DNA of 64,000 bases from Escherichia coli (GTDB lineage Bacteria; Pseudomonadota; Gammaproteobacteria; Enterobacterales; Enterobacteriaceae), in NCBI RefSeq assembly GCF_029227855.1, contig NZ_CP074356.1; one strand, 5' to 3'. A model generated the notes under the pieces. That model had not been told where the DNA came from. It was given only the letters and a program-made list of their open reading frames with translations, and searched no databases. Position 1 is the stretch's first letter. Each line of letters begins with the position of its first letter. Both the position numbers and the translations under genes were made by a program. Below are positions 15,020 to 17,361 of the stretch, one piece after another.

Positions 15020-15343
15020 ATGTCCCATCAGAAAATTATTCAGGATCTTATCGCATGGATTGACGAGCATATTGACCAGCCGCTTAACATTGATGTAGTC
15101 GCAAAAAAATCAGGCTATTCAAAGTGGTACTTGCAACGAATGTTCCGCACGGTGACGCATCAGACGCTTGGCGATTACATTCGCCAACGTCGCCTGTTAC
15201 TGGCCGCCGTTGAGTTGCGCACCACCGAGCGTCCGATTTTTGATATCGCAATGGACCTGGGTTATGTCTCGCAGCAGACCTTCTCCCGCGTTTTCCGTCG
15301 GCAGTTTGATCGCACTCCCAGCGATTATCGCCACCGCCTGTAA
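15020..15343 (+). CDS. soxS: SoxS, AraC-family activator
   Basis: 107 aa; AraC-type HTH; divergent from soxR. Confidence 0.97.
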   Translation: MSHQKIIQDLIAWIDEHIDQPLNIDVVAKKSGYSKWYLQRMFRTVTHQTLGDYIRQRRLLLAAVELRTTERPIFDIAMDLGYVSQQTFSRVFRRQFDRTPSDYRHRL

Positions 15344-15345
15344 TT

Positions 15346-16932
15346 TTATTGCCCGCGCGTTAACTCCCGCGCGGGTAATTGCTCCATCCATTGCATAAAC
15401 ACCTGCGGCGGCATCGCCTTCGCAAAGAACCATCCCTGGCAATAGCGCACGCCGCGTTTGCGCAGCCAGTTAACCTGCTCCTCAGTTTCGACGCCTTCAG
15501 CGATCGTTTTTAACCCCAGGCTGTGCGCCAGCTCGATGATGTGTTCCGCAATCAAATGACTGGTTTTGTGGGTGGTCAGCGTTTCAACAAACGATTTGTC
15601 GATTTTCAAAATATCGACATTCAATGATTTAAGGTTATGCAAGTTAGAGTAGCCAATACCAAAATCATCAATTGCCACTTCGTAACCAGCCTGGCGGAAA
15701 GCCAGAATAATCGGCGTCATTTTTTCGACATCAAGAAATGCATGCTCAGTCACTTCAAATTTAATTTGCTGCGGACGCACCGCGTATTGCTCTGTTTTCT
15801 GATTGATTCGCGCTATCAACCGTGACGTATGAAAATCGGAGGCCGACAGGTTAATAGAAACATAGCGATCTGCATGTGTTGCCAGGTAATCGCCCAGATC
15901 ACGGAAGACATTATCAATAACATAATCAGTTATCTGTTCTATCATCCCCTCCTTTTCTGCCAGCGGAATAAACTCTGCCGGATTCATTATTTGCCCCTGC
16001 TCACCAAGCCAACGTAACAACGCTTCAGCGCCGATACATTTTTCTGTTTTGATATCGATTATTGGCTGGTAATAAAGACAAAGTTGATGTTTTTCTAGAG
16101 CGCGTTGCAATTTGCGTTTGGGAGACAAATAGTTTTGTCGAATACGTAGCCAGAGTAATAGCAGAACAAGACTCCCCAAAATACCGGCGGGCAACGCAAA
16201 AATAAGATGATTATAAAAATGGGTTATAAGACGTTGATATGAAGTCGCAACAATGGCTGCAATTGGGCGTTTTGTCGAATAAACTGTCGCATATAAATAG
16301 CCATTTCTTTGTACGGTTAAATCCTTCAAATGAATCAGCGGAGAAAACGTTGCTGCCGAGGCCTCTTTGCTTAACGAGAAAAAGGTTTTCGTCACCGTAT
16401 CATACACACCCCATTGCAATGTCGGATCATCAGACATCACTTCACTCCAGAAGAGAGGGTTGATAACCGCCACATAATTTCCCCGCTGCATATAGGTCAT
16501 TTTATAGCCAGAGAAAAAAGGCGTATCGCGGTAATAATAGATAGAAACGTTAGGTTCACGCTTATAATCGGCCGGTGCAATCGTATAGCCGTTTACAGGC
16601 GCTATCAGCGATGAGCATAAAAAATGGTTATCACGGGCATAGATCAATTCATTAATATAAAGATAGCCACGAATAATATTCAACATTCGCTTTTGATGGG
16701 CTGGAGTGCAAACTTGCCCCTGATAGCGTTCAGCTGCATCGCTCACTAAATCTGCCTGGCGAATGACCAGCTCGGATTTATCCAGTGCCAGTTGAGCAAA
16801 GGTTCGGAGCTGATTATTCACTTCTGATTTTGCCCAAAGGAAGGCAATCCATAGCGAAAGAATGATGGGAAAGAGAACTAAAAAGATAATGCCCGGCAAC
16901 GCCAGTAATTGGTGTCGTGCACGATGACTCAT
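15346..16932 (-). CDS. pdeC: c-di-GMP phosphodiesterase PdeC (CSS-motif sensor, EAL domain)
   Basis: 528 aa from ATG 16932 (ORF track starts at TTG 16941); N-terminal TM/periplasmic domain and C-terminal EAL domain (EVTEHAFL ... QGWFF). Confidence 0.88.
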
Positions 16933-17361
16933 TGCTATCAATTTCCTGCCTGTTTATACCCGGCCATTGCAAGGTGAAAACCCTGGGTACCGACGTCTTT
17001 AGATAAATCTTACGGTATAAATAGCACTTTTGCCTGATTTGAAATTGATACCTTTCTAATCGTCACCTGGATGAAAATAATTCATTGATATTCAAAATTA
17101 ATTTCCTACAGGAATGCAGAGGCGGCGGGAAGATATGCCCTTAATGCCACTGAAAAACCACATAATCTGTACAGCAATAAAAGTCACGGCCTAATATGGC
17201 TAACAAACAATCAATTGTGATATAGTTCACAAAATTAATGAAACAAACAGAGTGTTTCATTTTTGTGTTCTGCAAGCCCCGCGATAGCCAGAGTGTACCA
17301 CGCCTCCCGTGAACAACGCCGCGCTGTCCAGGGCATCGGCTCTTTTCAGAGGAATTGTTTG

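Follow-up and report, generated by a model that had tools for sequence, protein, structure and literature searches.

How does the soxS transcript end at a locus where soxS runs head-on into pdeC, and what is the role of a GC-rich hairpin that lies just past the soxS stop, inside the last codons of the convergent gene? The earlier note on this DNA had taken the palindrome for the likely soxS terminator stem, and had suggested that convergent transcription and a shared structured 3′ end could couple soxS induction to pdeC mRNA stability. The window analysed here is a 64-kb stretch of the E. coli chromosome. Its 2.7-kb segment at 14400-17100 was matched in 5425 of 5426 complete E. coli genomes, with the genes there annotated as soxR, soxS and pdeC (Table 1).

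The two coding sequences are convergent and their stops nearly abut, exactly as the note had recorded, with the pdeC stop (15346-15348) read as TTA on the plus strand and TAA on the minus strand. The same 2-bp gap is present in the RefSeq annotation of four E. coli genomes, and is common to all hairpin-bearing loci of Escherichia and Citrobacter. PdeC is composed of a CSS-motif domain (residues 39-243) and an EAL domain (residues 273-505), as assigned by Pfam. The program-made list of open reading frames extends pdeC to a TTG at 16941; we followed RefSeq, which takes an ATG that yields a protein of 528 residues.

Table 1. Features of the soxR-soxS-pdeC locus, in window coordinates
Feature	Position	Strand	Basis
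soxR	14470-14934	-	Locus in window coordinates
soxS CDS, 107 aa, AraC-type HTH, stop TAA at 15341-15343	15020-15343	+	ORF list, Pfam HTH_18/HTH_AraC, RefSeq
Spacer TT, 2 bp, between the convergent stops	15344-15345	.	Sequence
pdeC (yjcC) CDS, 528 aa, CSS-motif and EAL	15346-16932	-	ORF list, Pfam, RefSeq
Extended stem-loop of soxS-sense RNA, AUUGCCCGCGCG / CGCGCGGGUAAU, 12 pairs, -21.6 kcal/mol	15348-15379	+	Fold
Core helix kept across genera, 9 pairs	15349-15357 with 15370-15378	+	RNAalifold consensus, pair counts, strand test
PdeC C-terminal tail, residues 506-528, beyond EAL	15349-15417	-	Pfam boundary, tail peptides of 80 loci
Perfect palindrome CCCGCGCG-TTAACTCC-CGCGCGGG, 8 G-C pairs, 8-nt loop	15352-15375	+	Sequence, folds, chance estimate
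Weak U-containing tail UAAUUGCUCCAUCCA, no T-run, tail score -2.8	15376-15390	+	Terminator scan, tail score
C-rich, G-poor, rut-like stretch, C/G 1.4-1.7, 90th-95th percentile of the window	15380-15550	+	Composition; cf. PMC6061677
MarA ChIP-seq site gcaataaaagtcacg in the divergent pdeC-yjcB intergenic region	17174-17188	+	PMC5684230, located in the window

The palindrome also lies precisely where it had been reported, within the last codons of pdeC: the arms CCCGCGCG (15352-15359) and CGCGCGGG (15368-15375) enclose the loop TTAACTCC (15360-15367). In the soxS-sense RNA, A-U and G-U extensions of the eight G-C pairs complete a 12-pair stem that begins 5-9 nt past the soxS stop. The 41-nt fold of the plus strand has a free energy of -21.6 kcal/mol (z-score -5.4), and none of 200 shuffled sequences is as stable; the minus strand folds at -18.9 kcal/mol (z-score -3.7). 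The 64-kb window contains two perfect 8-bp stems composed entirely of G and C (loops of 3-10 nt), compared to 0.08 expected from an order-1 Markov model. Sliding folds over the same window placed the hairpin among the ~17 most stable of 58 structured spots, the strongest of which are mostly REP elements or terminators. The soxS hairpin is thus beyond chance. In 5425 of 5426 E. coli genomes the junction is present once per genome, which rules out a dispersed repeat (REP/BIME or similar). A permissive E-value Rfam scan of 14300-17300 matched sraL alone and no family at the hairpin.

Conservation and strand preference of the stem-loop

Comparison with 80 soxS loci from other Enterobacteriaceae revealed that soxS and pdeC are widely found as a convergent pair, and that wherever they converge they are closely packed: most genera have gaps between -16 nt (an overlap) and +15 nt. 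Conservation of the sequence at the junction is confined to Escherichia, Salmonella, Citrobacter and Intestinirhabdus, and 19 distinct sequences from these genera were aligned free of gaps. In this alignment the register of the helix is held: 86% of the cells are paired, compared to 33-52% once the partners are slid by one to three columns. Covariation scores 0.313, compared to 0.200 for shuffled alignments, and none of 500 shuffles reaches this value, which is to be read with the caveat that the sequences are related and hold few independent events, and that one of the 19 supplied the structure under test. Compensatory exchange between UA and CG at 15349:15378 is seen in seven sequences, and further double-sided changes at 15357:15370, 15356:15371 and 15359:15368 bring the number of such pairs to four.

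In most species of this clade, the folding energy of the junction exceeds that of every background window of its own locus. Within E. coli, three haplotypes of the segment 15336-15395 account for 4902 of 5425 genomes, and they differ only at the soxS stop (TAA or TAG) and at one base of the loop, never in the stem. Outside the Escherichia/Salmonella/Citrobacter clade the hairpin is not conserved, and the structure of the junction is variable and sometimes no stronger than the background. A second hairpin (GCUGCUGCCAGG...CCUGCGGCGGC) was noticed inside pdeC in the Enterobacter group; the regular-expression anchoring is unreliable there, and this observation is not generalised.

The pairing also carries information on the strand. 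G·U pairs are tolerated only in the RNA of their own strand, as the opposite strand has an A·C mismatch at the same position. Over the nine core pairs of the 19 sequences there are 32 G·U cells against three A·C cells, so that 96.5% of the core is paired on the soxS-sense strand, compared to 79.5% on the pdeC-sense strand. Moreover, the soxS-sense fold is the more stable one in 17 of the 19 sequences, by 3-12 kcal/mol. The excess of G·U over A·C argues that the structure is kept for the soxS transcript, and the pair counts and fold energies likewise point to maintenance on the soxS-sense strand. The E. coli stem, made of G-C pairs throughout, can form in RNA of either strand, and it may have a role in the pdeC mRNA as well.

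Several lineages have lost pdeC, which leaves yjcB within 260-490 nt of soxS. The hairpin is nevertheless kept directly after soxS in three such cases, namely S. enterica subsp. arizonae, Escherichia sp. MOD1-EC7003 and Intestinirhabdus alba. The I. alba copy has divergent flanks, and CCUUUUC comes after its stem GCCCGCCCGG...CCGGCGCGGGC. Kluyvera and Pseudocitrobacter, also devoid of pdeC, carry different strong hairpins downstream of soxS, one of which is REP-like. Altogether, the held register, the compensatory changes and the persistence beyond pdeC indicate that the hairpin is maintained in evolution as an RNA stem-loop.

The 3′ end of the soxS transcript

A GC-rich stem-loop soon after the end of a gene is one hallmark of an intrinsic terminator, and the soxS hairpin has it. 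In E. coli the U-tract that defines such a terminator is missing, and on neither strand does the stem lead into a T-run. In the soxS sense the tail reads UAAUUGCUCC, and its first eight nucleotides (UAAUUGCU) contain four U, short of a U-rich tract; the sequence upstream of the stem (UUUUAUUG) has no A-tract. A simple terminator consensus scan, which requires five T of eight, left the hairpin uncalled and called the sraL/soxR terminator 900 bp away. Tail scores of the Kingsford type are -2.8 for the soxS sense and -1.7 for the pdeC sense, compared to -3.3 to -4.2 for the canonical terminators of the window. The sraL/soxR intrinsic terminator (14446-14476) resembles the soxS hairpin in its GC-rich stem, which is close in energy and lies right behind a stop codon; it differs in its A-tract and T-tract and in being called by the scan, whereas the soxS tail UAAUUGCUCC has no T-run. 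The U-tract is partly present in Salmonella, in Escherichia isolate SCPM-O-B-8794 and in Intestinirhabdus, where the tails after the homologous stem contain more U (UUUGUUGU, UGAUUUCU and CCUUUUC, respectively).

The soxS hairpin is therefore not a canonical intrinsic terminator. The earlier description of a likely soxS terminator stem within the last codons of pdeC holds up in its structural part, the stem being conserved with covariation, favoured in the soxS sense and kept where pdeC is gone.

What the hairpin does resemble is a class of stem-loops linked to Rho. The 170 nt downstream, which in the soxS sense would be untranslated antisense-pdeC RNA, are enriched in C over G (Table 1), which is weak evidence since the antisense strands of genes tend towards C-richness in any case. 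Dar and Sorek (2018, PMC6061677) found that the steady-state 3′ ends of Rho-dependent E. coli transcripts lie just after stable stem-loops, which lack a U-tract or an upstream A-tract, are followed by sequence with more C than G, and guard the RNA against PNPase and RNase II. In their view, U-poor stems might also terminate intrinsically, though inefficiently, with Rho as a backup. The soxS hairpin shares with these stem-loops the GC-rich stem right after the coding sequence, the low U content, the absence of an A-tract and the excess of C over G downstream. It differs from them in that both the stem and the presumed rut site lie inside a convergent coding sequence, whereas theirs are intergenic, and in that Rho dependence and exonuclease trimming are, for soxS, predicted from sequence.

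We propose that the hairpin is probably the 3′-terminal stem-loop of soxS mRNA, which would define and stabilise its 3′ end. Once transcribed, the soxS RNA would fold into a GC-rich stem of 9-12 bp located 5-9 nt past the stop codon. The stem might then itself end transcription, as an intrinsic terminator that is weak and poor in U, or it might block 3′-to-5′ exonucleases that trim back from Rho ends further downstream, in the C-rich antisense-pdeC RNA. The two routes are not exclusive, and one or both could operate. We infer both the function, that the hairpin ends or protects the soxS transcript, and the route from the conservation and the features described above.

In the tables of Adams et al. 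(2021), obtained from cultures with soxS uninduced, neither a Term-seq 3′ end nor a Rho region lies within MG1655 4276700-4277299, and the sole 3′ end near the locus is at the soxS start codon. The SMRT-Cappable-seq supplements have no entry for the locus. A literature search on soxS with bidirectional terminators, Term-seq or antisense readthrough returned nothing relevant, and we found no published 3′-end or strand-specific data for induced soxS.

An alternative is that the hairpin serves both genes as a bidirectional element, folding in either transcript and pausing RNA polymerase from either side, so that neither a U-tract nor Rho is needed and the mRNAs end through polymerase collisions, both head-on and trailing. 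The soxS hairpin resembles the elements described by Ju, Li and Liu (2019) and by Wang et al. (bioRxiv 2022.10.23.513370) in that it lies at a convergent boundary, here with a gap of 2 bp, folds in both directions (-21.6 and -18.9 kcal/mol for the perfect palindrome of E. coli) and sits where the 3′ ends would overlap. Intrinsic tails are lacking on both strands, as described for this class (bioRxiv 10.1101/2022.10.23.513370), and transcripts of the two genes are rated as overlapping in at least 50% of 58 RNA-seq samples. In addition, pdeC has no other recognisable terminator. Because the strand downstream of pdeC is G-rich (C/G 0.57-0.95), and thus a poor Rho substrate, and the pdeC-sense tail is CAAUAAAAUU, no terminator of its own is evident, and pdeC transcription may continue towards soxR, which lies on the same strand, and antisense through soxS. 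However, the described elements lie between genes, whereas the soxS hairpin lies within one open reading frame and appears to be selected on one strand. Its structure is not maintained for both transcripts (96.5% paired on the plus strand versus 79.5% on the minus strand), and the minus-strand fold is the weaker one in 17 of 19 sequences. Moreover, the hairpin is retained after loss of pdeC; in the pdeC mRNA it would be unwound by the ribosomes that translate across it; and collisions should be rare, with pdeC and uninduced soxS both weakly expressed. We consider a bidirectional element unlikely on this evidence.

Possible coupling of soxS induction to pdeC

Superoxide induces soxS by about 10- to 100-fold, and this inducible promoter fires into the gene of a c-di-GMP phosphodiesterase. 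The suggested coupling of soxS induction to pdeC mRNA is, as read from the sequence and from published expression data, not compelling. It would have soxS readthrough under paraquat, or pairing of the two 3′ ends, lower pdeC mRNA in cis as an excludon, by transcriptional interference or RNase III cleavage, which would tie superoxide stress to c-di-GMP turnover.

Some features of the junction fit this idea. By sequence the hairpin is a poor terminator, and it lies so close to the soxS stop (5-9 nt) that a terminating ribosome should hinder its folding. Tight convergence, with gaps from -16 to +15 nt, is kept in many genera of Enterobacteriaceae. Nevertheless, pdeC has repeatedly been lost with soxS kept, so the pairing of the two genes is not essential, and the C-rich RNA downstream should let Rho halt readthrough within ~200 nt.

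The published expression data can likewise be read in more than one way. ExcludonFinder (NAR 2025, PMC12288877, Table 1) lists pdeC-soxS itself among 165 convergent excludons of MG1655, as defined by overlapping RNA-seq coverage. Unlike a regulatory excludon, the listing records transcript overlap only, and some overlap of the two mRNAs is unavoidable because of the 2-bp gap. In Table S1 of Blanchard et al. (PMC2064960), who followed the response to paraquat over time, yjcC (pdeC) belongs to cluster 12, which rises in the ΔsoxR strain and not in the wild type. Antagonism of pdeC by soxS transcription would act in this direction; the argument is weakened by explanations in trans. Cluster 12 contains many unlinked genes of the ArcA/Fnr type, and the pdeC pattern thus needs no cis mechanism. 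Furthermore, the MarA/SoxS site between pdeC and yjcB (Table 1) offers a possible trans route from SoxS to both genes; it is context and not a part of the hairpin. The finding that yjcB is SoxR-dependent (cluster 2, PMC2064960) was tried as a sign of soxS readthrough across pdeC and rejected, since yjcB has its own MarA/SoxS site. A consensus soxbox scan of the window gave fewer matches than expected by chance and was uninformative. In Klebsiella (PMC3720812), yjcC is induced by paraquat and reduced in ΔsoxRS, which is the opposite sign to that predicted. Taken together, lowering of pdeC mRNA in cis by soxS transcription strikes us as improbable, although it would be cheap to test.

A stronger form holds that the junction is a working switch. 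Here the U-poor hairpin, too near the soxS stop to fold while the ribosome terminates, would be leaky upon soxS induction, and antisense and convergent transcription would together lower pdeC mRNA. If so, c-di-GMP would go up, and redox stress would be tied to biofilm or curli control independently of the SoxS protein. We give this form a somewhat smaller chance still.

Terminators and stem-loops located in the 3′ end of a convergent reading frame are a known outcome of tight gene packing. The soxS/pdeC junction belongs to an ordinary type of overlap between gene ends that is already on record, and it introduces no new type of mechanism.

The C-terminal tail of PdeC

The palindrome encodes residues 519-526 of PdeC (PARELTRG), followed by a glutamine and the stop. 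Over the stem, the peptide changes non-conservatively while the pairing is kept, as in the tails SPAHEFTCGQ of Escherichia isolate SCPM-O-B-8794, SPAILTQSGQ of the C. freundii group and PPVSMMQHEQ of a Citrobacter sp. The last glutamine codon alternates synonymously between CAA and CAG, and this change co-varies with a non-synonymous one at the first position of a codon ten codons upstream. Past a conserved motif, the PdeC tails of the 80 loci differ completely between genera in both length and sequence, and many of them simply continue into sequence antisense to soxS as far as the first stop. As the tail is variable between genera and lies outside the EAL domain, it looks unconstrained as protein. 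Conservation at third codon positions in the stem is confounded by codon bias in a sample that is too small, and cannot stand alone. We suggest that the pdeC frame simply runs through the hairpin, and that the last ~10 residues of PdeC form a poorly constrained tail that would be dictated by the hairpin, not the reverse.

The converse, in which the palindrome is a by-product of selection on the C-terminal peptide, a chance event or a DNA-level protein site with no RNA role, is very improbable: although within the clade the tail residues P-A and G-Q show fairly good conservation, and the third position of the proline codon could reflect codon bias, the compensatory changes hold the pairing and yet alter amino acids, in a tail outside the EAL domain that varies widely between genera, the hairpin outlives the loss of pdeC, the chance expectation is 0.08 per 64 kb, and tolerance of G·U is a property of RNA and not of duplex DNA sites.

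For annotation, this means that the tail of PdeC should not be taken as functional protein sequence, and mutations within it may act on the soxS mRNA instead. The locus would thus provide a clean example, if one of modest weight, of a transcript-end structure that overrides the protein sequence of an overlapping convergent gene.

Structured 3' ends around soxRS

On the flank of soxRS opposite pdeC, soxR and the small RNA gene sraL (RyjA) form a convergent pair, in which the soxR stop and final codons are overlapped by the terminator of sraL. This element is a textbook bidirectional intrinsic terminator with both an A-tract and a T-tract, whereas the GC-rich soxS/pdeC hairpin is U-less. At the soxS start codon, Term-seq recorded a strong RNA 3' end (score 43001; Adams et al. 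2021), which implies that, in uninduced cells, either short soxS leader transcripts are abundant or the transcript is processed. Within the soxS coding sequence lies a palindrome with a folding energy of -18 kcal/mol.

Features of the soxRS-pdeC-yjcB region (window positions)
Feature	Position	Strand	Remark
sraL (RyjA) sRNA gene	14337-14477	+	Rfam RF01408, 153 bits
sraL terminator hairpin	14446-14476	+	A-tract/hairpin/T-tract
soxR stop	14470-14472	-	
Term-seq 3' end, soxS start codon	~15021	+	MG1655 4277382 (-); Adams et al. 2021
Palindrome TTGGCGA-TTACAT-TCGCCAA	15157-15197	+	within soxS coding sequence
MarA ChIP-seq site gcaataaaagtcacg	17174-17188	+	pdeC-yjcB intergenic region; exact match to published site

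The soxS-pdeC junction in relatives

Enterobacter loci (L030, L033, L071 and others) carry a different hairpin, GCUGCUGCCAGG...CCUGCGGCGGC, about 20-55 nt past the soxS stop and within the pdeC codons MPPQxFMxWQQQ. On the soxS-sense strand, this hairpin contains U·G pairs and AUCGCUUUCG comes directly after it; it may represent an alternative soxS 3' structure. In Salmonella enterica subsp. diarizonae (L009, 3312-3329), the hairpin-adjacent pdeC stop has been lost, and the reading frame extends further, overlapping the soxS end by 13 nt. A 16-nt overlap of pdeC with soxS, with a pdeC product ending in ...AEI*, occurs in Klebsiella, Raoultella, Trabulsiella and others.

In the Kosakonia-like loci L051, L054, L057 and L059, soxS and pdeC are separated by 450-2800 bp of other DNA. 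Repeated loss of pdeC has placed yjcB, its divergent neighbor, directly downstream of soxS (L004, L007, L008, L036, L045, L067, L072, L077, L079 and L083). The lineages without pdeC are S. enterica subsp. arizonae, an Escherichia sp., Intestinirhabdus, Pseudocitrobacter and Kluyvera.

A MarA site between pdeC and yjcB

The intergenic region shared by pdeC and yjcB contains a sequence published as a MarA ChIP-seq site and assigned to yjcB<>yjcC, yjcC being the former name of pdeC (PMC5684230). The same paper names yjcB among the SoxS ChIP-exo targets. Therefore, SoxS could act in trans on the divergent pdeC and yjcB promoters.
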